A stretch of DNA of 64,000 nucleotides from an uncultured Actinomycetota bacterium (GTDB taxonomy: Bacteria; Actinomycetota; Humimicrobiia; Humimicrobiales; Humimicrobiaceae), in assembly GCA_964481885.1 (NCBI GenBank), contig CAYZUS010000002.1, forward strand, positions 40,837-104,836, in the 5' to 3' direction. The first letter of the stretch is position 1, and each line of letters begins with the position of its first letter. Positions 6,590 through 51,523 of this stretch are shown one piece after another. Under the pieces are notes generated by a model. That model was given only the letters and a program-made list of their open reading frames with translations, was not told the origin of the DNA and searched no databases. The translations under genes were made by a program, and so were the position numbers.

Positions 6590-7159
6590 TTAAGCTTTTT
6601 CGTCAACTGCTGCGATAATGTTTTCATCAGACGCCACAACGTCTTTTGTCTCAGCTTTTTCATCAATTGCCTCAGGAATCGCTTCGTCAGCTTTTTCCTG
6701 GGCTTTTGCAAACTCATCACTTACAATCTCCAGCTGGATGGTAGCTTTTACATCCTTATAAAGTTTTATTACCACTTTATAAGAACCAACTTCTTTTATG
6801 TGTTCTTCAAGCTCAATTTTTTTTCTGTCCAGTTCAATTTTCTTTTCTTCAAGAATTTTTTCAGCTATATCTTTATTTGTAATAGAACCAAAAAGTCTTC
6901 CCTCAGGGCTTGAATTGACTTTAATTGTTATTACTGCATTGTCAATAAGCAGCAACAGTTTTTTTGCTTCAGCTATATTTCCTGCATCTTTTTTGATGAG
7001 TGACTTTTTGACAATTTCCATCTGGTTGAGATTGCCCTTGGTCAATAGCCAGACAATATTGTTTGGGATAAGATAGTTTTTTGCAAAACCATCCTTTACG
7101 TTTATAATATCGCCCGCACTTCCTAATTTTTCATAATCTTTTGCAAGTATAACTTTCAA
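6590..7159 (-). CDS. rplI: 50S ribosomal protein L9 with an acidic C-terminal extension
   Basis: Starts MKVILAKDYEKLGSAGDIINVKDGFAKNYLIP. 189 aa versus ~148 typical. Confidence 0.9.
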   Translation of the reverse strand: MKVILAKDYEKLGSAGDIINVKDGFAKNYLIPNNIVWLLTKGNLNQMEIVKKSLIKKDAGNIAEAKKLLLLIDNAVITIKVNSSPEGRLFGSITNKDIAEKILEEKKIELDRKKIELEEHIKEVGSYKVVIKLYKDVKATIQLEIVSDEFAKAQEKADEAIPEAIDEKAETKDVVASDENIIAAVDEKA

Positions 7160-7250
7160 ATCTTCCTCCTCTAAAATTAATTATTTAATTTAACCGGGTA
7201 ATCCTGATATTTTTACTTTTTTCCAGAATTTGCTTTCCCAGATTTTTGCC

Positions 7251-8252
7251 TCAAAGATTTCTGCCAAGCTTCCTGAAATTGGCCCAGATATCTATCAGCC
7301 CCACTAAAGGCAGGACCGCCCCAAAACCAAAAAATAAAAACATTACTATTATTACAATAATCCTTATTGAAACCCTTACTTTAAATTTATCAAACAGACC
7401 CCATAAAACTGCTGCGCCCAGTGCCATATACAATAAACCAAAAACTATGATAAGGTTATATCCTGCAGCATCAATGATCCCGTCATACGCCTCATCAAAC
7501 TTCGGTATTATCAAAAATATTATACCTGCAATGACTCCCCAGCAATAATTCCAACTCAGGTCCCAGTTTTTAAACTGTGGCATTTCCTCTATTTTAATAT
7601 TATTTTTTCTTAAAATTATAAAACTAAAATAGTAATTTAATACTGCTGCAATGCCAAAAAAAGCCACTGCAAAACCCGGCACAAGAGCCGGCAGGTATTT
7701 AAGCAGTGCCTGTGTCTGGACAATAACTTCACTTAATTGGGCGCTGTCAGAAAACAACAGACCCTGATAACTCTTTAGCAACGGATCCTGATTAAGGTTT
7801 TCCACAGAACCATTGTAGGCTGACAGCATTTCCTTAATCACGTTCTGCCTGAGAATTAATGAATCTATAAGCAAAAACAACAATAATGTGATTGCGAATA
7901 ATCCAAATACTGTCAGCAATGCGTAAGACAGCTTTTTGTTTCTGCTGATAATATACTTGTAATTTACGGCCACTGCGCAAATCATGGCCAGCAGCAATAT
8001 TGCAAAAACATAGTTAAAAATAAATAAAACCAGTACTCCGGCAACTGCGCATATAATGGCATCCCTGTACCTGTTTGAAAGAAAAAGCAATGTTACCGGT
8101 ACCGGCAAAAATGCAAGCCCTGCGAAACCTGTCAAAGGCACAAATATCATCGCTGCCATCGCAAGAATCGTAAAAAATATCATTAAAAACAGGTTTGCTT
8201 TTTTAGAATCCTCATTATCATTACTTAAGTTTTCAAAGGGCTTAAAAGACAT
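7251..8252 (-). CDS. YybS-like (DUF2232) polytopic membrane protein
   Basis: 333 aa with multiple hydrophobic helices. It sits between rpsR and rplI, the position YybS occupies in Firmicutes. Confidence 0.6.
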   Translation of the reverse strand: MSFKPFENLSNDNEDSKKANLFLMIFFTILAMAAMIFVPLTGFAGLAFLPVPVTLLFLSNRYRDAIICAVAGVLVLFIFNYVFAILLLAMICAVAVNYKYIISRNKKLSYALLTVFGLFAITLLLFLLIDSLILRQNVIKEMLSAYNGSVENLNQDPLLKSYQGLLFSDSAQLSEVIVQTQALLKYLPALVPGFAVAFFGIAAVLNYYFSFIILRKNNIKIEEMPQFKNWDLSWNYCWGVIAGIIFLIIPKFDEAYDGIIDAAGYNLIIVFGLLYMALGAAVLWGLFDKFKVRVSIRIIVIIVMFLFFGFGAVLPLVGLIDIWANFRKLGRNL

Positions 8253-8377
8253 TTTTTAATTCAACAATAAATATAAAAATAATTTAAAATCAACGGCACA
8301 AAAAGTGCTTACGTAAAAGTCCTGCTGACTGATTGCCCCCAAGGCTGACCTTTACTAATATACAGTAATTCTGGATA

Positions 8378-8722
8378 TTATCTCTTAAAGTAAGCCATCA
8401 AAGCTACTTCTCTTGAGCGCTTTATCGCATCCGCTATCATCTTCTGATGCTGGACACAATTTCCTGTAGACCTCTTGGGTCTGATTTTCCCTTTATCAGA
8501 AACAAATTTCTTTAATCCTGCAACGTTCTTATAATCAATGTAATCGACATTCTCCTTGCAGAAATAGCAATACCTTTTTCTTTGCCTTAAATTTAAAGCA
8601 GATGAACCAGATGCACCTGCTGCACCTTTTGAATCTTTATCTCTGCCCTGCCTTGAGCTCATGGACGATGAACCCCTCGAAGTGCTTTTTTCGACAGTAG
8701 GTCTGTTTCCTCTTTTACCCAA
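8378..8722 (-). CDS. rpsR: 30S ribosomal protein S18 with an extended Ser/Arg/Gly-rich N-terminus
   Basis: Core RKRYCYFCKENVDYIDYKNV...GNCVQHQKMIADAIKRSREVALM. 114 aa versus ~75-80 typical. Confidence 0.9.
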   Translation of the reverse strand: MGKRGNRPTVEKSTSRGSSSMSSRQGRDKDSKGAAGASGSSALNLRQRKRYCYFCKENVDYIDYKNVAGLKKFVSDKGKIRPKRSTGNCVQHQKMIADAIKRSREVALMAYFKR

Positions 8723-8833
8723 TTTATAACTCCTTTTACTAATTTAATGCTTTGTTTTAATTTAAACTTACTATTAAAGTTTAATGCCCGAATTTAATTC
8801 CCGGATATCGGGACTTTAATATATTTATTTTTT

Positions 8834-9325
8834 TTAAAAAGGTATGTCATCATTTGTAAATTCAAGATCATCTCCATTGGTGGGGGGCTTTGCATAAACA
8901 TGCCTGTCTTCACCGCTTGCATCAGCGTACTGCCCTTTTGAACCACCGACAAATTCACCTTTTTCATTTTTGTCTATTTTACAAATCGCATACTCCAGGC
9001 TGGGAGCTACGACATTTGCAATTATCTTGAAAATATCTCTTTTGATACCTTCTTTGGTCTCGTAGCTTTCTATTGAAGGTGCGCCGACGACAAGGATCCT
9101 GTCACCTTTTTTTAAACTTTCAGCACAATTCTCAGCAAGCTTATACCACGTTGTTACTTTATAAAACGATACTTCATTTGTCCATTCCCCGGTTGCTTTG
9201 TTTTGAATACCCCTGTTTACTGCAATTCCAAAACTTGCTACAGGCGTTCCGCTTGGCGTAAACCTTAGCTCCGGATCCCTGGTAAGATTTCCAACAACAG
9301 TAATATTGTTAACACCAATTGCCAT
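8834..9325 (-). CDS. ssb: single-stranded DNA-binding protein
   Basis: OB-fold N-terminus NITVVGNLTRDPELRFTPSG and the acidic C-terminal tip DDIPF. Confidence 0.9.
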   Translation of the reverse strand: MAIGVNNITVVGNLTRDPELRFTPSGTPVASFGIAVNRGIQNKATGEWTNEVSFYKVTTWYKLAENCAESLKKGDRILVVGAPSIESYETKEGIKRDIFKIIANVVAPSLEYAICKIDKNEKGEFVGGSKGQYADASGEDRHVYAKPPTNGDDLEFTNDDIPF

Positions 9326-9366
9326 AATTTTACCCTCTTTTCAGTAAAATAATAATGCCTTCACAA

Positions 9367-9666
9367 TTATTTTGATTCCTTCTCGCTAAGCTTTACAATC
9401 ATATGCCTTAGTATCTTATCATTGATCTTGTTTAGCCTGTCAAGCTCTAAAAGCACGGAGGTATCTGAGCTGAAATATAGGATAACATAGAAACCATTTT
9501 CCTGATGTTTGATAGAATAAGCGAGCCTTTTGACTCCCCAAATATCGGTCTTTGTGACAATGCCTTTCGACTTTTCGATTGTAGCGGTAATCTTTGCCAA
9601 TTCTTCAGTCACTACCCCTTCTTCAAGAGAAGCACCAAAAATCAGCACCATTTCATAGTTTTTCAC
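9367..9666 (-). CDS. rpsF: 30S ribosomal protein S6
   Basis: MKNYEMVLIFGASLEE..., 99 aa. It is the first gene of the rpsF-ssb-rpsR cluster. Confidence 0.9.
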   Translation of the reverse strand: MKNYEMVLIFGASLEEGVVTEELAKITATIEKSKGIVTKTDIWGVKRLAYSIKHQENGFYVILYFSSDTSVLLELDRLNKINDKILRHMIVKLSEKESK

Positions 9667-10652: not shown

Positions 10653-11078
10653 GTTCCCCTGTTTTGGATAAATTTTTTATAATGATTCTTAATCAAATCC
10701 CGCGTAAGTTTAGCATTTACAGATACTATTTCAAGAGTGTCTTTTGAATTTAAAAGACTAATTGGTTTTAGCGCCATAAGAGGTATTAATATCTGAATTA
10801 TTTACATTTTTATTCAAAAATATAATCGATACATATATTTGATATTAAATTTTAAAGAGTATAATAACGAAATAATAGTTTAATATAATAAATTTATTGT
10901 CTTTTCGGCAGTAAATCACACCTTTTATATAGGGGTTACAAACATTGACTACAGAGCAAAAAGGGGCCCTGCTGTAAAAGAAATGAAATATTTAAAAATA
11001 TAAAAGATTTTTATTATTACAGCCTAAAAATGTAGTTTGATTATTGTACACGATATCTTTAGGGAGCAGTACCGCAAA

Positions 11079-14000
11079 ATGGTAATTCAAAATGAACTGG
11101 AAGAAAAGAAAATACTTCAACTGATTGTTTCTGCATCAGAAGAATTCCTGCAGTCTGCCGGTAATAAATTAAACTACCAGAAAATAACAGATAATATTTT
11201 AGATATCTCCGGCGCCAAGTATGCGGGCTTTAACTTGTATGATGAAGATGGCGACAAATTCAGAACAGTGGCTTTTTCTGCTCCGGACGGAATTGTAAAA
11301 AAAGCATCGTCTTTGGTGGGTTTCAAATTCCTTGACAAATCCTGGGAACATGACCCTGCCCGCGCCGAGAAAATAAAGTCAAAAATAATTACTCGTTTTT
11401 CTTCTTTAAGCGAACTTGAAGGAGGGTCCGTTTATAAACATATGTCTTCTCTTTTAGAGAAAACTTTCGATTTCGGTGAAGTGGTTATTGTAAAGATTTT
11501 AAAAGAAAATGTAATGCTTGGGGATTTTACTTTAATCATGCCCCGTGATGTCAATTTTAAAAATGACAGTTATGTTGAGATATATACCCGGCAGATAGGA
11601 CTGCTTATTGTCCGTAACAGAGGCGAAGCCAGAATGATTGAAAATGAAAGTCGCCTCAGAAGTGTTTTTGCTGCCGTAAGTGATCCGATTTTTCTGTTTG
11701 ACCAGAAAACAGGTGCTATTTTGGATGTAAATAACGCAGCATGCAGACTTTACGGCTATACGCGCGATGAAATGCTTAAGCTGAATGCCGGCAATATGTC
11801 CGCAGAGCCTAAAATTACAAAGGAATCAATGAATAATAGTTTTACTACTTTTGTACCAGTCAGGTACCATAAAAAGAAAGATGGAACTGTTTTTGTTGTA
11901 GAAATAACAGCCAGCCTGTTTGAACTAAATGGCCGCAATGCCATAACAGCCTCAATGCGGGATATTACCGAGCGAAAGGCTGCAGAAGATTTATTGCGGA
12001 ATGAACGGGAGAGACTTGCAAATATTATTGAAGGAACCAATGTGGGTACATGGGAGTGGAACGTCCAGACAGGAGAAACAATATATAATGAACGATGGGC
12101 CGAGATTGTCGGCCATACACTTGATGAAATACCGTCTGTTTGTCTGGAGATATGGAAAAATTTTGCACACCCCGAAGATCTTAAGAAATCAAACGAGCAG
12201 CTTAACAGAGTTTTTTCCAGGGAACTGGATTATTATGATATCGAAATGCGCATAAAACACAAAGATGGAAACTGGGTTTGGATACATGACAGGGGGAAAG
12301 TAATATCCTGGACCCCGGATGGCAAACCACTCTGGATGAGGGGTACTTATACTGAAATCACAGAGCGTAAAAAAACTGAGGAAGCGCTAAGGGAAAGTGA
12401 GTTAAAATATCGTTCTATTATCGAATCTTCAAGTGATGCAATTTTCTGCGTAGACGAAAAAGGGCAATATAAATTTACCAATCATCTGTTTTCATCAACC
12501 TTTGGAAAAACCCCGGATTATTTTATTGGAAAAACTTTTTGGGATATTTACCCCAAAGAGCACGCAGACTACCGTTATGATGCAACAAAAAAAGTGTTTC
12601 AGACCGGTGAAAGTGAGTCTTTGGAAGTCGAGGTTCCTCTGCCGGATAAAACTTTGCATTTCCTGGCTATAGCCAATCCTATAAAAGATGAAACAGGCAA
12701 AGTAATATTGGTTCTGACTCATGCAGTCGACATAACCGAACGTAAACGGACAGAGGAATTGGTGCAGAAAAGTGAGATCAAATACCGCCAGCTTTTTGAT
12801 AATATGACTACCGGTTTTGCGCTTCACGAAATGATCTATGACGAAGAAGGAAATCCTGTTAATTACCGCTTTCTTGAAGTAAATTCCGCTTTTGAAAAAC
12901 TGACAGGGCTTAAGGCTTCTGCCCTGATTGGTAAAACTGTCAAAGACGTAATTCCCAATACTGAGCAATATTGGATTGATGCTTACTCTACAGTTTCCAA
13001 AACCGGAGAATCAATTTCTTTTCAAAACTATTCAGAAGGCTTAAAAAAGTGGTATGAGTCATGGGTTTTCAGTCCAGCCAAAAATCAGTTTGCAACAATC
13101 TTTTCTGACATCACAGAGCGCAAAAAAACTGAAGAAGAAATTATCCACTTAAGCTTTCATGATCATTTAACCGGGCTTTATAACCGCAGATTTTTTGAGG
13201 AAGAATTAAAACGTCTTGATACCGAAAGACAGCTTCCCTTAAGCTTTATAATGGGAGATTTAAACGGCCTTAAGGTAATAAATGATGTTTTTGGACATGA
13301 TGAAGGCGACAGGTTGCTTAAAGAAACCGCAGAAATATTAAAAACAGTATGCCGCTCCGATGATATACTTGCGCGCTGGGGCGGAGATGAATTTGTCATT
13401 CTTCTTCCAAAAACTTCTATTTCCGAAGCAGATGAGATTACCGGCAGAATAAAAAAAGAATGCAAAAAAACAAACACTCAAAAGATAGAGCTGAGCCTTT
13501 CACTTGGATCTGCAACAAAAGAAATAGCGGGTCAGAACATACAGACAATTCTTATAGACGCTGAAAGCAACATGTACAGAAACAAACTTGGTGAAAAACA
13601 AAGCCTGGCAAGTTCTGTTATTTTTGCCCTGGATCAGGCTCTCTATGAAAAAAGCAATGAAACCAAAGAGCATACAGACAGGATACATGAGCTTGCCCTA
13701 AAACTCGGCAGGTCCATCAAACTTCCCTCCCACCAGTTAGACGAGCTTTCCCTCCTTGCATCACTCCATGATATAGGCAAGGTTGCAATACCTGAGAAAA
13801 TACTTCTTAAAAAAGGAAAGTTAACAGAAAAAGAGTGGGATATTATAAAAAGACATCCCGAAATAGGTTTTAACATTGCCCAGTCATCCCCGCAGATTGC
13901 GCATATTGCCAAAAGTATTCTCTCCTGCCATGAAAACTTCGATGGCAGCGGCTATCCGATGGGGCTGAAAGGTCAGGCAATTCCCATTATATCAAGAATA

Positions 14001-14168
14001 ATTTTTATCATTGATTCTTATGATGTCATGATAAGCGGGAGGGTATATAAACCGGCAATGAGCAAAGAAGATGCAATTAAAGAGCTTAAAAGATGCGCCG
14101 GCTCCCAGTTTGATCCTGAACTGGTAAATAATTGTTATAATGATTCTGAAAGACTGACTTTTGGTTAA
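11079..14168 (+). CDS. multidomain c-di-GMP turnover protein: GAF-like N-terminus, four PAS domains, GGDEF and HD-GYP
   Basis: The tracked ORF starts at 11037. The likelier start is the ATG at 11079, with an AGGGAG RBS 12 nt upstream; it matches the paralog's start. Four PAS-like repeats each end in ...ITERK(K/R)(A/T)EE. The GGDEF domain is intact (RWGGDEFVILLP). The HD-GYP domain shows HDIGKVAIPE...HENFDGSGYP. Confidence 0.85.
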   Translation: MVIQNELEEKKILQLIVSASEEFLQSAGNKLNYQKITDNILDISGAKYAGFNLYDEDGDKFRTVAFSAPDGIVKKASSLVGFKFLDKSWEHDPARAEKIKSKIITRFSSLSELEGGSVYKHMSSLLEKTFDFGEVVIVKILKENVMLGDFTLIMPRDVNFKNDSYVEIYTRQIGLLIVRNRGEARMIENESRLRSVFAAVSDPIFLFDQKTGAILDVNNAACRLYGYTRDEMLKLNAGNMSAEPKITKESMNNSFTTFVPVRYHKKKDGTVFVVEITASLFELNGRNAITASMRDITERKAAEDLLRNERERLANIIEGTNVGTWEWNVQTGETIYNERWAEIVGHTLDEIPSVCLEIWKNFAHPEDLKKSNEQLNRVFSRELDYYDIEMRIKHKDGNWVWIHDRGKVISWTPDGKPLWMRGTYTEITERKKTEEALRESELKYRSIIESSSDAIFCVDEKGQYKFTNHLFSSTFGKTPDYFIGKTFWDIYPKEHADYRYDATKKVFQTGESESLEVEVPLPDKTLHFLAIANPIKDETGKVILVLTHAVDITERKRTEELVQKSEIKYRQLFDNMTTGFALHEMIYDEEGNPVNYRFLEVNSAFEKLTGLKASALIGKTVKDVIPNTEQYWIDAYSTVSKTGESISFQNYSEGLKKWYESWVFSPAKNQFATIFSDITERKKTEEEIIHLSFHDHLTGLYNRRFFEEELKRLDTERQLPLSFIMGDLNGLKVINDVFGHDEGDRLLKETAEILKTVCRSDDILARWGGDEFVILLPKTSISEADEITGRIKKECKKTNTQKIELSLSLGSATKEIAGQNIQTILIDAESNMYRNKLGEKQSLASSVIFALDQALYEKSNETKEHTDRIHELALKLGRSIKLPSHQLDELSLLASLHDIGKVAIPEKILLKKGKLTEKEWDIIKRHPEIGFNIAQSSPQIAHIAKSILSCHENFDGSGYPMGLKGQAIPIISRIIFIIDSYDVMISGRVYKPAMSKEDAIKELKRCAGSQFDPELVNNCYNDSERLTFG

Positions 14169-14452
14169 ATTTAATTTCCACCTCCGGCACTAAATTTAAG
14201 CCAGATGACAGTACCGCTTCCACTATCTTTTCAGCAGAAATTAATTATTTTCAGGTTCACAATTAGTCAAATATAACTGACAGGGAAAATTTAAACCCTA
14301 ATAAATAATTTCAAGAAATTCAAGTCATTCACTGAAATTAATAAACCCTGCCTGTATTTAAAAAAAACCCAATATGAGTGATAATACGCATAAGGAAAAC
14401 CAGAGTAATGATTTTAGAAATAATTTTAAAAAGTTTAAAAGGGGATAAAATT

Positions 14453-15016
14453 ATGAGTCAGACTAAAAAAAATTCATTAATATTTTTTATGGGACCAATC
14501 ATTATACTGCTGTCATTTATTTTACTTGTTTTTAACACAGCGGGCTGTACTCCCAAGACAAATGTCAGGCTTTACTTTTCCCAATATGAAGATAACCTTG
14601 CTTATCTTGTTCCGGAAATGAGGCCGGTCGTAAATGATGGTGATTTTTATAAAAATATTGTGCAGGAAATTATCAAGGGGCCGGCAGACAAACAGACATA
14701 CCAGACAATTCCATCAACAGTAAAGGTAAATTCAGTTACTGTTTCAAGCGGGCTTGCAATTGTTGATTTTTCAAAGGAAATAATCACTAATGAGACAGAA
14801 ATACCGCATAGTTCAACAACCGAAATGCTTGCTATTTATTCAATAGTAGATACACTAACAGAGTTTAAAGAAATCCAAAAAGTCAGGATAACAGTCGAAG
14901 GTAAACAAAAAGGTTTAATCGAAGGTCTAAACATTGAAGATTTCTGGGGACAGGTTGGCATTTATGATGACTTTTCACGAAACGAACAGGTCCTGACAAA
15001 GGATACAATAGAATAA
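14453..15016 (+). CDS. GerMN-domain lipoprotein
   Basis: The tracked ORF starts at 14378. The ATG at 14453, with a GGGGATAAAATT RBS, gives a signal peptide plus lipobox (...LVFNTAGC). The GerMN-like region is NVRLYF...AYLVPE....LAIVDFSKE....ITVEGK. Confidence 0.65.
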   Translation: MSQTKKNSLIFFMGPIIILLSFILLVFNTAGCTPKTNVRLYFSQYEDNLAYLVPEMRPVVNDGDFYKNIVQEIIKGPADKQTYQTIPSTVKVNSVTVSSGLAIVDFSKEIITNETEIPHSSTTEMLAIYSIVDTLTEFKEIQKVRITVEGKQKGLIEGLNIEDFWGQVGIYDDFSRNEQVLTKDTIE

Positions 15017-15019
15017 AAA

Positions 15020-16204
15020 ATGGTTATAGAAAATAATTCTCTCCCATTTTCTCAATTTATAAAAAACGACAGTAAGAGCACTTTGCCCAAAGTGGGCTGG
15101 CTTTGTACTTATACCCCTGAAGAAATAATTATCGCAAATGGTTTCTGGCCCGTAAGGATAACCGGAAGTCAAAAAGCAAAAAAAGCTGAAGGGTATTTCC
15201 CCATAAACTTTTGCCCTTTTATAAAATCCTCGATGGAGGATCTTATGGATTTGAAGCATGAGCTGAGTGCAGTCATAGTTACAAACTCCTGTGACGGTAT
15301 GCGGCGTTTTTACGATATTGCTTCAAAATATATTCCGGAGCTTCCTTTTTTTATGCTGGATGTCCCAAGAAATCAAAACGAGCTGGCAGTTGAGTATTTT
15401 GCAAACAATATTTCAAAAATGTCTGATTTCCTTGAAGAAATAAGCGGCAGGAAAATGCTTCTGGCTGACCTGATCTCTGCACAGGAGACATGCAGTGAAA
15501 AAAGAATGCTTTTAATAAAACTCAGCAATTTTTTTAGAAATGACCAAAAAGTAATTGGGGTTAAAAATTACTTTAATATACTCATCAGCTCAATGACAGA
15601 AGAGCCGGGATATTTTAATAATGACCTTAGGTCATATTTTGAGTACGCTGAAATCCAGATCGAGCACAATAAATTAAAAACCGAGGCCGAATTAGAAGAT
15701 GCCGGCACCGAACAAACTCCTGAAGTAATGATTGTCGGAAACTTTATTGATGAAGACAGGTTATGGGAAATATTTGATGAGCTTGATTGTAAGATTTCTG
15801 CTGATGATCTTTGCAGCTCAAGCCGGTATTTCGAAAATATTATTCAGTCTGATAATTTTTCCGATATTTTTGGCAGAAAACGTGAACAACCGGATAAAGA
15901 TATATCGACCGGAATACTTGTTCGAGATATTGCTGTCAGGCAGCTTTTCAAACCACAGTGCATGAGAATGGCAAATCTTAATGATAAACTTGAAGAAATA
16001 AATAAAAATATCATAAAGAATAAGGTTAAGGGGATTATCTATATCAGTCAGAAATTTTGTGACAACACTCTCCTTTTCTATCCGCTTCTGAGGGAAAAAT
16101 TAAATATTATTAATATCCCCAGCCTTTTTATAGAAGTTGAACATAATAATTTATCGGTCGGGCAGATTAAAACCAGGATACAGGCTTTTTTGGAGATAAT
16201 TTAA
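15020..16204 (+). CDS. 2-hydroxyacyl-CoA dehydratase family subunit (HgdB/HadC-like)
   Basis: GWLCTYTPEEII...PVRI...TNSCDGMRR...LDVPR is the characteristic Cys-containing HgdB/BcrCB-family pattern. 394 aa. Confidence 0.7.
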   Translation: MVIENNSLPFSQFIKNDSKSTLPKVGWLCTYTPEEIIIANGFWPVRITGSQKAKKAEGYFPINFCPFIKSSMEDLMDLKHELSAVIVTNSCDGMRRFYDIASKYIPELPFFMLDVPRNQNELAVEYFANNISKMSDFLEEISGRKMLLADLISAQETCSEKRMLLIKLSNFFRNDQKVIGVKNYFNILISSMTEEPGYFNNDLRSYFEYAEIQIEHNKLKTEAELEDAGTEQTPEVMIVGNFIDEDRLWEIFDELDCKISADDLCSSSRYFENIIQSDNFSDIFGRKREQPDKDISTGILVRDIAVRQLFKPQCMRMANLNDKLEEINKNIIKNKVKGIIYISQKFCDNTLLFYPLLREKLNIINIPSLFIEVEHNNLSVGQIKTRIQAFLEII

Positions 16205-16227
16205 CTTTTGACACCGGAGAACTTTTT

Positions 16228-17727
16228 ATGGGCATAGCAGAGAATATAAAGCAAAATCTCAAAGTCAAGATTCAGAACAATCTTGACAGGAATTATATCA
16301 GGAAGATATTAAAAATAGTTGGCCGAAGGCCGGTGCTGGCTGCATATGGAGCAACAATATCCTCCAGATCTGATAAATATCTGAATATTGCAACCATAAA
16401 AAGTGTGAGCCACGCATACAATCCCAAAAATATTGTCGCTTATGGTTCACTTTTCCTGCCATATGAGATGTTTCACGCACTTGACCTTGTGCCCTTTTTA
16501 CCAGAGGTAATGGGAGGATTTACTGGCGGTCTGGGGATTGCAGACAGGACCTTAAAGGAAGCTTCTTCGAGATGGTACACGCCTGATCTGTGTACATTCC
16601 ACAGAAGCGCATCAGGCGCTGTAGAACTTGATATTTTTCCGGTCCCAAATTTTCTTTTATGTTCAAACCTGGCATGTGACGCGGCCCAAAAGACGTTCTA
16701 CATGGATGCCAAAAAATTTGGTCTGGGAGACAGGTACTACCTTATTGATACCCCTTACGACAAAGATGAATCATCGATAAAATATCTGGCTGCCCAACTC
16801 GAAGCAGTAAGTACCGATATTTGCAGAAAGTCAGGCAAAAAAATTGATATCGGGAAGTTTAAAAAATCAATAAATTTATCAAATGAATTCAGGCAATGGG
16901 CCATAAAAGCAAGCGACATCAGAAAAGAACTTTTAATTTATCCGAATAATTTTGATGGGCTTAGCTTTATCCTGCCTTTTCACGGTCTTGCAGGGACAAA
17001 AGATGCTGTTGAAGTCTATAAAAATATGTATTTTGAATTGAGTGAGTTTTTAAAGAAACAAAAAAGCGGCGGTTTTAAAGACACTCCCGGCAGATGGAGC
17101 GGCATACGAAGACGAATCAGCGGGAATAAGGGCATAGGCGGTACCAATAGTGACGGCGCGGGCGGCAGAGGAGTTGCTGATTTCGAAGGTGGCAGCGTGA
17201 GCGGCAGTTTCGACAGTATTGAAAGCAGCAATAACATTGATGGAGGAAATATAAGCATCGGTGGAACTGGCATTTCCGGCAGTGCCAGAATTAAAAAAAT
17301 CCTCTGGCTGCACCTGAAACCATACTATAACAATAATCTTTTCAGCCTGCTTGAGAGTAATAATTATAAGGTAGTTTTTGAAGAGATAAGCCAGGTGTAC
17401 TGGCCGGAGCTTGACCCTGAAAAACCTTTTGAGAGCCTTGCGATAAAAATGCTGTCTCATCCATTAAATGGTAGCGTGCAAAACAGGGTTAATGCAATAT
17501 TGAAAATGGTAAAGGACTTTAATGTGGACGGAGTCATCATGTTTGCCCATTGGGGATGCAGGCACAGCAACGGAGGCGCAAGGATAATAAAAGACAGCTT
17601 AAAAGAGGTCGATGTGCCGATGCTCCTGCTTGATGGTGACTGTCTCAATAAAAACAATTCGTCAGAAGGACAGATGCTGACAAGGCTGCAGGGTTTTATG
17701 GAAATTGTAGATGCAAAATTTCAATAA
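16228..17727 (+). CDS. 2-hydroxyacyl-CoA dehydratase family subunit (HgdA/HadB-like) with an ~75-aa Gly/Ser-rich insertion
   Basis: YGSLFLPYEMFHALDLVPF...DLCTFHRSASG...CSNLACD...LIDTPYD, as in the HgdA/HgdB family. A low-complexity insert spans nt ~17059-17293. The C-terminus reads ...HWGCRHSNGG. Confidence 0.7.
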   Translation: MGIAENIKQNLKVKIQNNLDRNYIRKILKIVGRRPVLAAYGATISSRSDKYLNIATIKSVSHAYNPKNIVAYGSLFLPYEMFHALDLVPFLPEVMGGFTGGLGIADRTLKEASSRWYTPDLCTFHRSASGAVELDIFPVPNFLLCSNLACDAAQKTFYMDAKKFGLGDRYYLIDTPYDKDESSIKYLAAQLEAVSTDICRKSGKKIDIGKFKKSINLSNEFRQWAIKASDIRKELLIYPNNFDGLSFILPFHGLAGTKDAVEVYKNMYFELSEFLKKQKSGGFKDTPGRWSGIRRRISGNKGIGGTNSDGAGGRGVADFEGGSVSGSFDSIESSNNIDGGNISIGGTGISGSARIKKILWLHLKPYYNNNLFSLLESNNYKVVFEEISQVYWPELDPEKPFESLAIKMLSHPLNGSVQNRVNAILKMVKDFNVDGVIMFAHWGCRHSNGGARIIKDSLKEVDVPMLLLDGDCLNKNNSSEGQMLTRLQGFMEIVDAKFQ

Positions 17728-18018
17728 TTTTTCAAAGCAGCGGCCAGCATTGCAACAGAAGCTGTTTTATGTAAATTGCAGACACAGGGTTTCAGTAATT
17801 TCTCAAAGCATCTGACAGCATCGTGACACCAGCCCTTTTATGGAAATTGCAAACGCAGGGTTTCAATAATTTCTCAAAGCATCTGACAGCATCGTGACAC
17901 CAGCCCTTTTATGGAAATTGCAAACGCAGGGTTTTGATAATATCTTAAAGAAGCGAACAGATTTGCAGTAGCATCTCTTTTATGGAAATTGCAAACGCAG
18001 GGTTTTAATGGTTTTAAG
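17692..18018. repeat. 71-bp tandem direct repeat array (~4.5 copies) seeded by the last 36 nt of the upstream CDS
   Basis: The units lie at 17765-17835, 17836-17906 and 17907-17977, with a partial unit at 17978-18018. Each begins ttttatggaaattgcaaacgcagggtttcaataatttctcaaagca. Copy 0 (17692-17764) is the 3' end of the gene at 16228-17727. Confidence 0.9.
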
Positions 18019-18067
18019 TATAAATATTTTTAAAATTATCTCCAAATAAACATCGGAAAGGATTTTT

Positions 18068-18838
18068 ATGTACACATGTGGAATAGATGTAGGCTCAGTA
18101 TCGGCAGAAGCAGTAATAATTAACAGGCAAGACGGAAAGACTGATATAGTCGCATACATAATAACGCCTACAGGCGGAGACAGCAAGGGAGCCGCTACAA
18201 ATGTTTTTAACCAGGCTCTGGAAAAAGCAGGGCTTGCAGCGGGCGATATTTCAGCTGTTGTGGCGACAGGTTATGGCAGAATAAATATCCCTTTTGCCAC
18301 AAAAAACATAACTGAGATAAGCTGCCATGCAAGAGGAGTGGCCCATTATTTCCCCGACATCAGGACCGTAATAGACATTGGCGGCCAGGACAGCAAGGTT
18401 ATTAAACTTGACAGTAAGGGTAACCCGATTGATTTTTTGATGAACGACAAGTGTGCTGCCGGAACCGGGAGATTTCTTGAAGTAATGGCAAAGGCGCTGG
18501 ACATAGATATACGGAATTTTGCTGAAATCTTTGCCACAACAAGCCAGAAAGTAGATATTTCCTCCACATGCACAGTTTTTGCCGAGTCTGAGATTGTTTC
18601 ACTTATCGGGCATGGAGTTGCCAAAAACAGCATCGTCAAAGGTCTTGTTTATTCCATTACAGGCAGGATAATATCAATGGTTGAAAGAATAGGGCTTGAA
18701 GAGCCGGTTTGTATGACAGGCGGAGTTGCAAAAAACCTTGCCGTGGTTAGCGCCCTTGAAGAAAGACTGGACTTAAAGATAAAGGTTCCGGAAGAACCCC
18801 AGATAACCGGCGCACTCGGTGCCGCACTTTTAGGTTAA
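18068..18838 (+). CDS. CoA-substrate-specific enzyme activase (BadF/BadG/BcrA/BcrD ATPase family; HgdC/HadI-like)
   Basis: MYTCGIDVGS...DIGGQDSKVI...CAAGTGRFLE. 256 aa, the typical activator length. Confidence 0.85.
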   Translation: MYTCGIDVGSVSAEAVIINRQDGKTDIVAYIITPTGGDSKGAATNVFNQALEKAGLAAGDISAVVATGYGRINIPFATKNITEISCHARGVAHYFPDIRTVIDIGGQDSKVIKLDSKGNPIDFLMNDKCAAGTGRFLEVMAKALDIDIRNFAEIFATTSQKVDISSTCTVFAESEIVSLIGHGVAKNSIVKGLVYSITGRIISMVERIGLEEPVCMTGGVAKNLAVVSALEERLDLKIKVPEEPQITGALGAALLG

Positions 18839-18909
18839 AAACAATAAGTGTTCCTTGAGCTTTCCAGCCATTCCTGCAAAGTGCAATTAATGCTTCTTGG
18901 AATGAAGTG

Positions 18910-20154
18910 CTACTGTTGCTTTTTATAAAAAGCATTCAGCTTGATATATTCATAAGTAATATCATTAGTCAGGATACGTGCAGACTGCTGGCCGCAATTA
19001 AGATTTACATTAAAACTAATATATCTTTCCTTCAGCAGATTGTTTGCATGCCCCTCATCAAAATCAACAGACATTCCCGCCTTCATGACAAAGATGTCAC
19101 CGCATGAAATATCAATTTTTGAATTATCGATATTATTATCAATTGACCCAATGGCTGCCGCAATTCTTCCCCAGTTGATGTCTTCCCCGTACATTGCAGA
19201 TTTAAAAAGTATGGAATTTGCAATTTTTTTACCTATTGCCCTGGCTTCATTTTTATCTGCGGTACCTGTAACATTTATCTCAATTACTTTGGTTGCGCCC
19301 TCCCCGTCTTCGACTACTTTCATTGAGAGATTTTCAAGGAGCATAAGCAAAGCTTTTTTGAAGACTTTATAAAGCTCCTGATTATCTTTTGTAATTTCCA
19401 GTGTGCTTGCACCATTTGCTATTATAAGTGCCATGTCATTTGTGCTCTGGCACCCGTCAGTTGAAATGCAGTTAAATGTTGAGTCCACGCACTCAAACAA
19501 CAGCTCATCCAGAAGTTCAGGCTTTATTTTTGCGCTTGTCGCCATAAACGAAAGTGTTGTGGCCATATTGGGCTCAACCATCACAGAACCTTTGGCAATG
19601 CCGCCCAGGAATACTCCCCTGCCATCAAATTCAAACAGCAGCGCGTATTCTTTGGGATGTTTGTCAATAGTCAGGATTGCTTTTGCAGTATTATGGCCGC
19701 CTTCCTGATTTAAGTGCCTGCTGCAAAAGTCCAGCCCTTTCTCAATCTTGTCAAGCGGAAGCTGCCTTCCAATCCTTCCTGTGGATGAGACCAGTATATT
19801 TTCTTCAGGGATATTTAAGTATTGCGCCGCAAGCTTTACTGTCTGTTTGGCGTTAGCTATACCGAGTTCGCCTGTACAGGCGTTAGCTATACCGCTGTTT
19901 ACGATTATTGCATTTATGTTCCTGTTTTTACTTAACTGCTGCTTGGAAACTACTACGGGAGCGGCTGCAAATTTATTTGTTGTAAAGACTCCGCTGCATG
20001 CGGTATCACCGGGTAGAAAAATTATACTGAAATCATCTTTTGATTTTCTTATTCCACAATGATGCGAAGCCGTGAGAACTCCCGGAACAGATGTTATTGT
20101 TCCATTTTCAATTATTTTGATTTCATTTCTTTTGTTGCCTGTATTATCGCTCAT
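18910..20154 (-). CDS. argJ: bifunctional glutamate N-acetyltransferase/amino-acid acetyltransferase ArgJ
   Basis: ArgJ-family architecture, 414 aa. The self-cleavage region reads PNMATTLSFMAT and there is a KGSVMVEPNMAT motif. Confidence 0.85.
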   Translation of the reverse strand: MSDNTGNKRNEIKIIENGTITSVPGVLTASHHCGIRKSKDDFSIIFLPGDTACSGVFTTNKFAAAPVVVSKQQLSKNRNINAIIVNSGIANACTGELGIANAKQTVKLAAQYLNIPEENILVSSTGRIGRQLPLDKIEKGLDFCSRHLNQEGGHNTAKAILTIDKHPKEYALLFEFDGRGVFLGGIAKGSVMVEPNMATTLSFMATSAKIKPELLDELLFECVDSTFNCISTDGCQSTNDMALIIANGASTLEITKDNQELYKVFKKALLMLLENLSMKVVEDGEGATKVIEINVTGTADKNEARAIGKKIANSILFKSAMYGEDINWGRIAAAIGSIDNNIDNSKIDISCGDIFVMKAGMSVDFDEGHANNLLKERYISFNVNLNCGQQSARILTNDITYEYIKLNAFYKKQQ

Positions 20155-20240
20155 TTTTTAGTGTTTTTCCTCTTAAAAAATTTTTTAAATAATATTTAAA
20201 ACTCAACCATGGCAAGTTTTAAAGAAGATCTGCCTATATA

Positions 20241-20302
20241 TAATTATTGCATATTATACATAATTATTAAATATTATGCAATAATTATTAAATATTATGC
20301 AA
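20241..20302. promoter_or_regulatory. three tandem ~21-bp AT-rich repeats (two perfect copies of taattattaaatattatgcaa) upstream of argJ; candidate ARG-box-like operator
   Basis: Perfect 21-bp copies lie at 20261-20281 and 20282-20302, with a degenerate copy at 20241-20260. The 21-bp spacing equals two helical turns. The region sits 90-150 bp upstream of the argJ start codon. There is an internal TGCA/TGCA dyad. Confidence 0.4.
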
Positions 20303-20306
20303 TAAT

Positions 20307-21449
20307 TTATTTTAGAAATTCCTGGTAATTGTTTCTGTCAACTATTTCAAAACTCGAATATTTATAATTATCAGAAAATCCTTTGGGAATTTTAGAGGAT
20401 TTGAATCCACGGTTTTTCCACTTGAATTCATAAGCACTTATTTCCCCTGCTGCTTCTTCGATATAATCAATTTCTCCTTCCTGGTGGGCTCTCCAGAAAT
20501 AGGAATTTACATCTGACAAATTATTTGAATTATTCTTTAGCCTCTCTGAAGTCATAAAATTTTCCCACAAAAAACCCATATCATTCCTTAAAAAAGCAGG
20601 GTTAAAATTATTAATAATTGCATTTCTTATTCCGGTGTCGTAGAAATAAATTTTCCTTAAGCTTTTTAGTTCATTTCTCAAATTACTGCTGTAAGGGTTA
20701 AGCCTGAAAATAATATAAGCCTTCTCCAGAATTGAAATATAATTTTGAACAGTTTTTTTATCTATTCCGACGATATTTGACAATTCGTTGTAGGAAACTT
20801 CGTTTCCTATCTGCAGAGCCAGTGCCTGTAAAAGCTTTTCAAGGATTTCAGGATTTCTTATACGCTGATATTGCAGAATATCTTTATAAAGGTAACTTTT
20901 TGCAATCTCCTTTAAATTTCTTTGAGCATCCGGTTCGTTTAAGACAATTTCAGGATATGACCCAAAGATTATCCTGTTCTCCAGAAGCCTGTCGATTTCC
21001 AGGGGTGAATAAATATTTTGCACCTCAGATATTGAAAAAGGGTAAAGATGATATTCATACTTTCGGCCCGTCAGGGGCTCAACTATTTCATTTGACAATT
21101 CAAAAGATGAAGAACCGGTTGCTATGACCTGGATTTCCTTATAATTATCCGCAATCAACTTTAAAGTCAAACCTATATTTTTTACTCTTTGAGCTTCATC
21201 TATCAGCACAAGCTTTTTATTACCTATCAGGCTTTTTAATTCTGTTGAAGTTTTTTCAGAAAGTGACTGCCTGATATCGGGTTCGTCGCAGTTAAGATAT
21301 ACAGATATGTCATTGAATTTATTTTGGATTTCTTTTACAACTGTGGTCTTGCCTGTTCTGCGCGCACCATAAATGATTATTACCTTATTCTTGAACAAGC
21401 TGTTTTCGATGCTCTGCTGGATATGCCTTATAACTGTCATTTTTTCCAC
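20307..21449 (-). CDS. AAA+ ATPase with a C-terminal DUF4143 (COG1373-type)
   Basis: Walker A GARRTGKT and Walker B LVLIDEAQ. 380 aa. Confidence 0.75.
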   Translation of the reverse strand: MEKMTVIRHIQQSIENSLFKNKVIIIYGARRTGKTTVVKEIQNKFNDISVYLNCDEPDIRQSLSEKTSTELKSLIGNKKLVLIDEAQRVKNIGLTLKLIADNYKEIQVIATGSSSFELSNEIVEPLTGRKYEYHLYPFSISEVQNIYSPLEIDRLLENRIIFGSYPEIVLNEPDAQRNLKEIAKSYLYKDILQYQRIRNPEILEKLLQALALQIGNEVSYNELSNIVGIDKKTVQNYISILEKAYIIFRLNPYSSNLRNELKSLRKIYFYDTGIRNAIINNFNPAFLRNDMGFLWENFMTSERLKNNSNNLSDVNSYFWRAHQEGEIDYIEEAAGEISAYEFKWKNRGFKSSKIPKGFSDNYKYSSFEIVDRNNYQEFLK

Positions 21450-31676: not shown

Positions 31677-32660
31677 TTAGAATAAATTACATTTTTTTAG
31701 CCAGTCAATACTGTCTTCGATTGTCTGCCTCACCGGTCTTGGATCATACCCCAGCTGCTCCGTAGCTTTATTATGGCTGATGAAAGAATTGCTTCTTAGC
31801 GTCCTCAAAGTATAAATGGTAAACACAGGCTTATGGCCAGTTACCTTATAATATATGGGGGTGAGCATTGCCACCGGATAAGCCACCCAGACAGGCAGTT
31901 TGTACCTTGGCAGAGGAACGCCCGTTAACTCTTTCAACATCTGCATAAGTTCGCCGGTGGTTACTCTCTGGCCTGAAAGTATATAGGTTTGCCCTTTTAC
32001 TCCCTTTTGAGCTGCAAGAATATGTCCCATTGCAGCGTCTCTTGCATCTACAAAATCAAAGGCACCATCCATAATAATTTTTTGTTTTCCCGCACAATAA
32101 TCAATAAACATGGAACCAATATTTGATACCTTGAAATCATACGGCCCCATTATTCCGGTCGGGCACACTATAACTGCGTCAAGGCCCTGCTGACTGACTG
32201 CCCTGAGCACATCCAGGCTTGCTTGTGCCTTTGTCCTGTTGTACTCGCCCATCCGGTTGTAAGGATCAAAAGGCAGAGTCTCGTCAATAATAGTTCCTGC
32301 CCCGCTTTCCCTATAAGCGCCGATGGAACCTGTGTAAATCAGTCTTTTTACTTTGCATTCAAGACAGGCCTTAATAACATTGCCGGTACCGACAATATTT
32401 ATTTCTCTTAATCTCTTGTGACGTCCCGGCATTATCGATACTTCTGAAGCAAGATGATAAACATACTCTGCACCATGAAAGGCTTTTTTTAGTGATTCAA
32501 AATCAAGAACATCACCATAAACTTTCTCAACTTCGCAGTCATCAAAACAAGCTGTGTCAGAAGATTTACGAACGAGGGCCCTTACATCCCTGCCCATGTT
32601 TAAAAGCTCCCTTATAAGAGCGTTTCCCAAAAGACCTGTTGAGCCTGTAATTATATCCAT
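31677..32660 (-). CDS. NAD-dependent epimerase/dehydratase (extended SDR)
   Basis: ITGSTGLLGNALIREL Rossmann motif and the YxxxK catalytic region. 327 aa. Confidence 0.75.
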   Translation of the reverse strand: MDIITGSTGLLGNALIRELLNMGRDVRALVRKSSDTACFDDCEVEKVYGDVLDFESLKKAFHGAEYVYHLASEVSIMPGRHKRLREINIVGTGNVIKACLECKVKRLIYTGSIGAYRESGAGTIIDETLPFDPYNRMGEYNRTKAQASLDVLRAVSQQGLDAVIVCPTGIMGPYDFKVSNIGSMFIDYCAGKQKIIMDGAFDFVDARDAAMGHILAAQKGVKGQTYILSGQRVTTGELMQMLKELTGVPLPRYKLPVWVAYPVAMLTPIYYKVTGHKPVFTIYTLRTLRSNSFISHNKATEQLGYDPRPVRQTIEDSIDWLKKCNLF

Positions 32661-50335: not shown

Positions 50336-51523
50336 TTATTTTGCCAGATAAGCAGTTAGTTTCTCATCAAATGATTTGAAGAGATCAGCATTTTCTGTGT
50401 AGCTTGTTTCGTAGAATGCAAGATCCCACTGGAATTTATTTTCAGCTCGTGCCTTCAAATAATCCTCGATTACCCAAGGAATAGCCTGATCCAAATTTTC
50501 TTTGGTCATTGCTGCCCAAGGTTTGATCTGCAGATAAGTGAGAGCTTCTTCGCCTCTAAGATAACGGGAGATCTGCTGAATACAAAGATCAGCATTTAAT
50601 GATGGAGGATTTGGAGATGTAGCTGACATCTTGCCATCTTTAATTAACTGCCAACCTTCTTCTTTACCATTGCAGGAAACCATTATCTTGCCTGTTACGT
50701 TTTGTTCTTCAAATACCTGCTGAACACCGAAAGCTGTTTCTTCATTGCAAGCAAAAATTACATCAAATTCCCTGCCTGATGAAATAAGATCCTGTGTTAT
50801 AGGTATTGCAAGAGTTCTCTGCCATTCTGAGCTTTTGGTTAAAAATGCTGGTTCCAGGCCTGCTTCTTCAAGAGCCATATCAAAACCAACGATTTCGCCT
50901 TCAGCTGGGCCCTGTCCAAGAAATCCGGGGATATTTACACTCTTGGCATTAGGAACATTTTCTGCAACCCATTTGCCAACCTGATAACCCATGATTACAA
51001 AGTTATCAGTTACGTGTCCCTGAAGTTCAGTTCCTGCTGTAAGCTCAGGTTTTCCAGCGATAAAGAATATTGGCACCTTTGCATCGTTAGCAGCCTTGAT
51101 TGTAGTAGCGCTTCCTGCTGCACCTGCAGTTATAACTGCAATTGCGTCTACGCCCTTAGCGATAAGATCCTGAACGTTTGCAAGTTCTTTTTCAGGTTTG
51201 TAGTCAGAGTTAAGCTCTGTAACTATCATACCCTGTGATTCTGCCAAAGCCTTAAATGCTTTTCCAAATGCTGCATAATAATCATCAGGACCTGCATTTA
51301 CAAAGCCAAGTTGTTTTCCTGTAAGATCCATCTGAGCGGCTTCTGTTTCAACAGCAGCAGCAGTAGTTTCAGCAGCAGCAGCTGTGGTTTCAGCAGCAGC
51401 AGTTGTAGCAGCAGCTGTAGTAGCAGCAGCTGTAGTTTCAGCAACAGTTGCAGTTTTACAACCAATGCCTATTGATCCTAAAATAGCTATACAGATTACG
51501 ACTATAAGTAGCTTTTTTAACAT
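50336..51523 (-). CDS. sugar ABC transporter substrate-binding lipoprotein (periplasmic-binding-protein type I fold)
   Basis: Signal peptide plus Cys, then a Thr/Ala-rich linker (TAAETTAAATTAAA...), then a ribose/xylose-type PBP domain. Confidence 0.75.
   Translation of the reverse strand: MLKKLLIVVICIAILGSIGIGCKTATVAETTAAATTAAATTAAAETTAAAAETTAAAVETEAAQMDLTGKQLGFVNAGPDDYYAAFGKAFKALAESQGMIVTELNSDYKPEKELANVQDLIAKGVDAIAVITAGAAGSATTIKAANDAKVPIFFIAGKPELTAGTELQGHVTDNFVIMGYQVGKWVAENVPNAKSVNIPGFLGQGPAEGEIVGFDMALEEAGLEPAFLTKSSEWQRTLAIPITQDLISSGREFDVIFACNEETAFGVQQVFEEQNVTGKIMVSCNGKEEGWQLIKDGKMSATSPNPPSLNADLCIQQISRYLRGEEALTYLQIKPWAAMTKENLDQAIPWVIEDYLKARAENKFQWDLAFYETSYTENADLFKSFDEKLTAYLAK

Follow-up and report, generated by a model that had tools for sequence, protein, structure and literature searches.

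Gene organisation of the locus

The DNA under study is a 64-kb window (the whole stretch that was analysed, 64,000 nucleotides) from an uncultured, low-GC actinomycetotal bacterium, in which four consecutive plus-strand genes between positions 14,453 and 18,838 specify a lipoprotein and the components of a candidate ATP-driven iron–sulphur (Fe–S) enzyme. The first gene (14453–15016, plus strand, 187 residues) encodes a lipoprotein with a single GerMN (Germane) domain (PF10646, E = 6e-24). It is followed by genes for two proteins of the HGD-D family (PF06050), a β-like subunit of the BzdN/DCCP/HadC type (15020–16204, plus strand, 394 residues, E = 3.5e-63) and an α-like subunit of the HadB/BzdO type (16228–17727, plus strand, 499 residues, E = 3e-56); in the latter, the Pfam match falls into two stretches with an insert between them. 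The fourth gene (18068–18838, plus strand, 256 residues) encodes an ATP-dependent activase, or ‘archerase’, of the BcrAD_BadFG family (PF01869, E = 1.9e-59), which scores 258 bits against a cut-off of 125 with the NCBIfam model TIGR00241, ‘acyl-CoA dehydratase activase’. Upstream of the block on the plus strand is a gene for a PAS-GGDEF-HD-GYP protein, and downstream lies a convergent ArgJ gene.

A sequence-only reading of the window had recognised these four open reading frames (ORFs) and proposed the same domain identities, and the location of the ORFs and the hidden Markov model matches to PF10646, PF06050 (twice) and PF01869 bear out both. Its labelling of the two HGD-D proteins as β (HgdB-like) and α (HgdA-like) agrees with their NCBIfam scores, the best models being β/N-type (HadC-type) for the first and HadB-type for the second, all far below the equivalog cut-offs. 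The two paralogs are divergent, matching one another at only about 30 bits. Both nevertheless carry the HGD-D fold, and the 20 fold matches at E ≤ 0.001 belong without exception to the class I benzoyl-CoA reductase/2-hydroxyacyl-CoA dehydratase (BCR-I/HAD) family. The genes had also been described as tightly linked. This is true of the GerMN–β and β–α junctions, which measure 3 nt and 23 nt, but not of the last, where the α and activase genes are separated by 340 nt filled by a tandem repeat.

The β-like subunit

The β-like subunit contains eight cysteine residues, six of which, Cys29, Cys65, Cys91, Cys265, Cys314 and Cys347, are invariant in orthologs as distant as 41% identity. The alignment pairs them singly with the ligands of DCCP and, respectively, with Cys36, Cys73, Cys100, Cys263, Cys293 and Cys327 of BzdN, the ligands of the [8Fe-9S] cluster in the BzdNO structure (PMC11971306). 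In the alignment, HadC has proline at the position of Cys29 and alanine at that of Cys265, and MbdN lacks three of the six. The seventh, non-ligand cysteine of DCCP falls at Thr48 of β, a position occupied variously by threonine, leucine, phenylalanine or methionine among the orthologs. The earlier description of this subunit as HgdB-like is therefore correct at the level of the HGD-D family but not at that of the cluster site, where a BzdN/DCCP ligand set of six cysteines stands in place of the three-cysteine site of HadC and HgdB.

The structure model of β (predicted template-modelling score, pTM, 0.84) is closest in fold to BzdN and HadC, each with a template-modelling (TM) score of 0.82, and then to DCCP. 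The best single-sequence match in the Protein Data Bank (PDB) is BzdN and the best profile match is DCCP, at 174 bits. The corresponding NCBIfam models all return sub-threshold scores: 129 against 700 for NF052456 (HadC), 98 against 454 for TIGR03190 and 145 against 350 for NF040772. The conserved ligand set suggests that β carries an [8Fe-9S] double-cubane cluster on its six cysteines.

The α-like subunit and its linker

In α, three cysteines, Cys122, Cys150 and Cys444, are invariant in 139 representatives of the family, so that the count of conserved ligand cysteines called for by the sequence-only reading comes to six in β and three in α. The three align with Cys95, Cys128/129 and Cys380 of BzdO, which hold the [4Fe-4S] cluster of that subunit (PMC11971306). 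Of the BzdO active-site residues, the comparison covers His131 (Trp46 and Glu65 fall outside the α alignment); His131 aligns to the invariant Ala152/Ala153 of α. The structure model (pTM 0.82) has HadB as its closest fold (TM score 0.84), followed by MbdO, BzdO and DCCP, and a profile of the α family gives its top score, 196 bits, against HadB, although the sequence identity between α and HadB is only 16–17%. The NCBIfam scores are again sub-threshold (75 against 750 for NF052455, the HadB model, and 33.5 against 449 for TIGR03191). These alignments are consistent with a [4Fe-4S] cluster held by three cysteines in α, one iron of which would be open. The α family is small, with 186 representatives at E < 1e-30 among 1.84 billion proteins.

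A further cysteine, Cys472, occurs in a DGDC motif after the last strand of α and was considered as a fourth ligand of the cluster. It is invariant in the actinobacterial clade and present in 61 of the 139 representatives of the wider family; the equivalent residue is glutamine in HadB and methionine in BzdO, and DCCP also has no cysteine there. The candidate was not adopted.

The Gly/Ser-rich insert that the sequence-only reading had noticed is indeed present. On the basis of gaps in the orthologs and the predicted local distance difference test (pLDDT) score, it is delimited as a low-complexity interdomain segment at residues 286–351 (17083–17280, plus strand), the sole part of α with a pLDDT below 50. 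The segment aligned to residues 273–362 of the window protein spans 90 residues here, 43–79 in near relatives and 18–28 in most orthologs, most of which are gapped at the insert; the linker sequences of different genomes are unrelated. No tandem repeat was found in the DNA that encodes it. A role as a functional module was ruled out by this hypervariability of length and sequence and by the predicted disorder, and we regard the insert as a variable interdomain linker, predicted to be disordered and carrying no functional signal.

The activase and the preceding spacer

Cys129 and Cys168 of the activase lie in the motifs NDKCAAGTG and SSTCTVFAE, which are common to HadI. By analogy with HgdC, we take these residues to be the ligands of an inter-subunit [4Fe-4S] cluster. 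Among the relatives of solved structure, HadI (4EHT) gives the highest score, 243 bits, followed by MbdQ (227), HgdC (215) and DCCP-R (173). There is one activase gene per block, both in the window and in all 37 related loci in which an activase gene adjoins.

The spacer before the activase gene is occupied by a 71-nt × 4.5 tandem repeat (17694–18009, plus strand; Tandem Repeats Finder score 352, 82% matches). The repeat starts within the α gene, 34 nt from its end, and its unit duplicates these 34 nt together with the 37 nt downstream. No other copy of the unit occurs elsewhere in the window, and no stable fold was detected in the repeat (z = +1.33). The relatives L002 and L003 (82% identical) lack it; their spacer is 23 nt long and contains the same ribosome-binding site, GGAAAGGATTTTTATG. 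The possibility of a structured or dispersed element was accordingly discarded, and we treat the repeat as a genome-specific tandem duplication of the 3' end of the α gene. A different short tandem repeat, of GGATATCATAAT-like units, is found in the β–α spacer of another relative (L004, 7816–7989), and such repeats between genes may be a recurrent trait in this group of genomes. An E-value scan of positions 13900–19100 against Rfam revealed no riboswitch or other RNA leader.

The GerMN lipoprotein

The product of the first gene scores 85 bits against a cut-off of 23 with PF10646. Its amino terminus, MSQTKKNSLIFF..., is rich in paired lysines and is followed by a hydrophobic stretch and then by the lipobox Thr-Ala-Gly-Cys, with Cys32 (14537–14548, plus strand), which marks the end of the signal peptide as judged by inspection. 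The start codon at 14453 is preceded by a ribosome-binding site, AAAGGGG; the public gene model (P0391) begins 15 codons earlier, at 14408, and gives a protein of 202 residues. A lysine-rich start, a hydrophobic stretch and an [LI][STA][SAG]C motif recur in every GerMN ortholog whose N-terminus lies on the contig, and from this conserved pattern the assignment of the predicted protein as a lipoprotein appears sound.

The nearest solved structures are those of GerM (6GZB) and of a lipoprotein (5J7R). The window protein has its GerMN domain and lipoprotein signal in common with GerM of Bacillus subtilis and LpqB of Actinobacteria; GerMN-domain lipoproteins have been proposed to have a role in the envelope or in carbohydrate binding (PMC2732212). 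It differs from both in consisting of one domain of about 180 residues, without the second GerMN domain of GerM or the GMAD1 propeller of LpqB. Its gene does not adjoin mtrAB and is instead co-oriented with the genes of the Fe–S enzyme.

Conservation and gene neighbourhood

A scan of one genome per species yielded 80 loci, which were mapped by our own ORF calling and with jackhmmer. Fifty-three of them belong to Actinomycetota, with Humimicrobiales, Humimicrobiaceae, Hydromicrobium and Calidifonticultor among the names, and have β subunits 82–34% identical to that of the window. Homologs of β, α and the GerMN protein come almost solely from metagenome-assembled Actinomycetota, and the labels that they carry in public records, ‘2-hydroxyacyl-CoA dehydratase family protein’ and ‘GerMN domain-containing protein’, are generic. 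Across these 53 species-level genomes, the gene order is GerMN–β–α–activase on one strand. The GerMN gene is present in 52 of the 53 (in two cases recovered by tblastn), the conservation for which the sequence-only reading had proposed a check, and the β and α paralogs are adjacent in 47. The GerMN stop codon lies 49–246 nt upstream of the codon for the β Cys29 (n = 44), leaving little or no intergenic space. The median gaps are 21 nt between β and α (n = 47) and 23 nt between α and activase (n = 37), the 340 nt of the window being the maximum for the latter junction. Relative to the window proteins, the orthologs have median identities of 54% (GerMN, 49 orthologs), 44% (β), 57% (α) and 71% (activase). 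We conclude that the GerMN gene is a stable member of the operon, a conclusion that is well supported, and that it is presumably co-transcribed with the enzyme genes.

Both flanks of the block vary. Upstream are found, in different genomes, a HisPhos gene directly, NAPRTase and isochorismatase genes, MscS, SIMPL or the GGDEF protein. Downstream are ArgJ, an aminotransferase with an M20 protein, a DHH-CBS-PolyA_pol (CCA-like) enzyme, PIN, MGMT, trehalose-6-phosphate genes, a B12-radical S-adenosylmethionine (SAM) enzyme, or Cas3/Cas5/Csd1. No CoA-transferase, CoA ligase or acyl-CoA dehydrogenase gene occurs within 6 kb of the operon at any of the 53 loci, as judged from 45 clusters of flanking ORFs identified by annotation or homology, with small clusters and singletons making up the part left unscanned. 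In the 64-kb window itself, the scanned or homology-labelled ORFs, 120 residues or longer, include no CoA-transferase, AMP-ligase or acyl-CoA dehydrogenase gene. The absence of such genes beside the operon, remarked upon in the sequence-only reading, thus extends to its orthologs. Two contrary outcomes considered there, namely large ORFs without a match to the HgdAB family, and CoA-gene neighbours combined with an unconserved GerMN gene, did not materialise.

Two loci have an altered enzyme. In L015, the place of α and activase after GerMN–β is taken by a 483-residue protein (8176–9627) that matches no Pfam family and has no homolog at the other loci. In L016, a 769-residue ORF (6950–9259) joins a β cut at about residue 318, with loss of Cys347, to α from residue 15 onward; either the gene is degenerate or the assembly is at fault.

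Outside the actinomycetotal clade, β identity is about 31% or lower and the GerMN gene is present in none of the loci. In anammox Planctomycetota (L053–L082; for example L080, 5731–9402) of the genera Brocadia, Kuenenia, Jettenia, Scalindua and Anammoxibacter, activase and β are fused in a protein of about 640 residues. The α gene directly follows the fusion in 14 of 20 loci; in five it is absent although there is room for it, and in one it is absent at a contig end. A 129-residue ORF precedes the fusion in several of these loci, though not in all, and its copy in L080 has a sub-threshold COX1-like membrane match. We found no literature on this arrangement, and none linking anammox with 2-hydroxyglutaryl-CoA dehydratase. 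In Atribacteria, β–α–activase genes follow a Liv-type ATP-binding cassette (ABC) transporter, and among the distant loci one lies beside genes for an acyl-CoA dehydrogenase and a radical SAM enzyme and one has ThiC/ThiD. The neighbours of the distant relatives were considered as a source of a shared functional theme, and none emerged, the contexts differing from locus to locus. In the parts of the Humimicrobiia literature that we consulted, nothing on this operon was apparent; an OPB41 paper mentions a HAD-like pair, but in a different class, Coriobacteriia.

Assignment of the operon and the place of the GerMN gene

Overall, it is probable that the locus is a conserved four-gene operon of Humimicrobiales-type Actinomycetota, three genes of which specify an ATP-driven, low-potential Fe–S enzyme of the BCR-I/HAD superfamily. 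Domain identities, ligand conservation, model folds, gene order, its retention across species and the lack of neighbouring CoA-pathway genes are direct results of the analysis. From the parts, and from their likeness to characterised systems, we infer the types of cluster, the electron path, the preference for reductase over dehydratase chemistry, the co-transcription of the genes and any link between GerMN and the enzyme.

Several observations weigh against this assignment. Five loci have no adjoining activase gene, so that the unit is not absolutely fixed, and L050 has the β and α genes without GerMN. GerMN accompanies the enzyme in one clade only, where the surrounding region is syntenic as well; none of the related enzymes in anammox Planctomycetota, Atribacteria and other groups has GerMN beside it. 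A scan for promoters and terminators gave site counts at the level of shuffled sequence and is uninformative. The six conserved cysteines, read as ligands from the sequence, are necessary but insufficient for a double-cubane cluster. Finally, the preference for a reductase draws on one characterised analogue, BzdNO.

It is quite possible, and nearly an even matter in our estimation, that the GerMN protein is a passenger, sharing a transcript with the enzyme genes or merely a position through inherited synteny and serving the envelope independently. The restriction of the association to a single lineage with a syntenic neighbourhood, the L050 locus, and the homologous enzymes of other phyla, which are never found with GerMN, all speak for this, as does the fact that an exported lipoprotein and an oxygen-sensitive cytoplasmic Fe–S enzyme occupy different compartments, so that no direct contact between them is possible. 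Simple inheritance of position is harder to reconcile with the GerMN–β junction, which stays tiny or overlapping throughout the 52 species while both outer flanks have been repeatedly rearranged, with the stronger constraint on GerMN than on β evident from their median identities, and with the retention of GerMN down to 34% β identity. The first two of these observations favour a functional tie. A speculative proposal, which we think rather unlikely as it stands, places the lipoprotein and the double-cubane enzyme in a common housekeeping pathway of the lineage; an example of such a pathway would be the low-potential reduction or dehydration of a non-CoA envelope precursor that the lipoprotein binds, senses or places.

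Relationship to characterised enzymes

The HadBC/HadI system of Clostridioides difficile (3O3M, 4EHT) likewise comprises two HGD-D paralogs and one activator of the homodimer type. HadB, the nearest fold to α, has a three-cysteine [4Fe-4S] site, as α is predicted to have, and HadI is the nearest activase. HadC differs from β in lacking two of the six cysteines, and the identities are low, at about 22% between HadC and β and about 17% between α and HadB. In the genome, the Had genes stand with those for a CoA-transferase and a dehydrogenase. HadC has a single [4Fe-4S]-SH cluster (PMC7317905).

These likenesses raise the question of whether the operon encodes an ordinary 2-hydroxyacyl-CoA dehydratase with its activator, as in amino-acid fermentation of the Had/Hgd/Fld kind, with its partner CoA genes elsewhere and GerMN irrelevant to it. 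The relation of α to HadB in both model and profile, that of the activase to HadI, the single activator gene, as in HAD systems, and the public annotation as ‘2-hydroxyacyl-CoA dehydratase family protein’ are all compatible with this explanation, which we nonetheless judge improbable. The single three-cysteine cluster of the dehydratases (Had/Hgd/Fld/Lcd) is not what β offers: it keeps all six double-cubane ligands, the full set that HadC has lost, and for this reason the enzyme is to be regarded as a hybrid and not as a plain 2-hydroxyacyl-CoA dehydratase. Moreover, the scores of both subunits lie far below the NF052455 and NF052456 cut-offs, α retains little identity to HadB, no CoA-transferase, ligase or acyl-CoA dehydrogenase gene lies within 6 kb of the operon in the 53 genomes or in the 64-kb window, and its location among housekeeping genes is conserved.

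BzdNO (8S02) is a heterodimer in which the layout of six-cysteine and three-cysteine ligand sets is as found here, and all nine positions align. In BzdNO, one subunit holds an [8Fe-9S] double-cubane and the other a [4Fe-4S]-OH2 cluster (PMC11971306). That the operon encodes a class I benzoyl-CoA reductase of the Bzd type is very improbable in spite of this match and of the standing of BzdN as the top fold and best single-sequence PDB match for β, since there is one activase gene where Bzd, Bcr and Mbd enzymes use two different ATPase subunits (BzdPQ, from two genes, in the case of BzdNO), the TIGR03190 and TIGR03191 scores are far below cut-off, His131 of BzdO is replaced by the invariant Ala152/Ala153, and no ligase, ferredoxin or dienoyl-CoA pathway genes, or other aromatic-pathway context, lie nearby.

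The sequence-only reading had likened the operon to the YjiL/YjiM type of orphan system. DCCP/DCCP-R of Carboxydothermus hydrogenoformans (6ENO, 7YYL) and YjiM/YjiL of Escherichia coli do share with it the six ligands, the single-gene activase and the orphan context. DCCP and YjiM are each encoded by one gene and have a seven-cysteine motif (the six ligands and Cys94); the solved DCCP is a homodimer, with the double-cubane as its active site (PMC7317905). The likeness is a loose one, as the window operon has two paralogs, the second being the HadB-like subunit with its three-cysteine site, and the seventh cysteine is missing, its place being taken by Thr48. In addition, β lacks the N-terminal extension of about 45 residues found in DCCP and falls well short of the NF040772 cut-off.

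The operon is thus a member of the BCR-I/HAD superfamily that fails the defining tests of HAD, of Bzd-type BCR and of DCCP/YjiM. The enzyme is therefore a hybrid, which belongs neither with the classical dehydratases nor with the benzoyl-CoA reductases or the homodimers of the YjiM/DCCP kind. Its cofactor layout is most like that of BzdNO, and its subunit count, α fold and activator are most like those of HadBC/HadI.

Proposed mechanism

By analogy with HadI/HgdC, DCCP:DCCP-R and BzdNO, a mechanism can be drawn for the low-potential enzyme. The activase would be a homodimer like HadI, with a [4Fe-4S] cluster held between the Cys129/Cys168 pairs of its two subunits, and hydrolysis of ATP would push an electron from it into β. 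The putative [8Fe-9S] double-cubane of β would relay or store electrons, and the open iron of the α cluster may bind a substrate of carbonyl or thioester type and reduce it via a ketyl-type radical. In the account given for BzdNO, the double-cubane accumulates two electrons and was lost by HAD enzymes (PMC11971306). Because the cluster serves there as an electron store that the HAD enzymes no longer have, we lean towards an enzyme that carries out a net reduction and not a dehydration, which would be redox-neutral. The housekeeping location and a neighbourhood without CoA-pathway genes speak against a catabolic pathway of CoA esters, although the genes for one may lie elsewhere in the genome.

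Significance

To our knowledge, the double-cubane [8Fe-9S] cluster has been solved in only two systems, DCCP, for which we know of no established role, and BzdNO, where it serves in aromatic ring reduction, and we know of no characterised enzyme with the present combination of parts. The operon presents what would be a compact and widely conserved third setting, in which a six-cysteine subunit like BzdN and DCCP is combined with a HadB-like subunit and a single HadI-like activator. It stands among housekeeping genes, away from any CoA-pathway genes, in a whole lineage of Actinomycetota that are uncultured and come from the subsurface and from sediment. In the evolutionary scheme put forward by the authors of the BzdNO structure, DCCP gave rise to BCR and BCR to HAD (PMC11971306), and the operon looks like an intermediate form implied by that scheme.

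Nothing is overturned by these findings. Neither the family nor its chemistry nor any of the parts is new; the novelty is a branch with a hybrid arrangement of cofactors and subunits, accompanied by a conserved lipoprotein gene. The branch should be useful for work on archerase-driven Fe–S enzymes and double-cubane clusters, and its three enzyme genes form a set small enough for heterologous study. The conserved GerMN partner hints at a connection with envelope biology that can be tested; were the two to share a pathway, a double-cubane enzyme would for the first time have a physiological role other than in aromatic degradation, and a GerMN protein would have its first partner among cytoplasmic enzymes.

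Other features of the window

Between the HisPhos gene and GerMN, the window has a gene for a 1043-residue protein with three PAS domains followed by GGDEF and HD-GYP domains (11037–14168). The gene occurs at this position in this genome only, and in none of the 53 related loci. On the other side of the operon, a gene for an AAA_14/DUF4143 ATPase (20307–21449) is inserted between ArgJ and DHH-CBS-PolyA_pol when compared with L001 and L002, and is abutted by a 21-nt × 3.3 repeat (20240–20307).

Further downstream, positions 31677–56502 are taken up by a long minus-strand region resembling those for sugar or inositol catabolism. It encodes seven xylose-isomerase-like TIM-barrel proteins (six of them above the Pfam cut-off) and two GFO/IDH/MocA oxidoreductases, together with a zinc-dependent alcohol dehydrogenase (Zn-ADH), an FGGY kinase, a major facilitator superfamily (MFS) transporter, a URO-D-like protein, a sugar ABC transporter and a LacI regulator. 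Within this region, a CAG-rich tandem repeat with units of 15–21 nt (51345–51447) lies inside a periplasmic-binding-protein gene (50336–51523).

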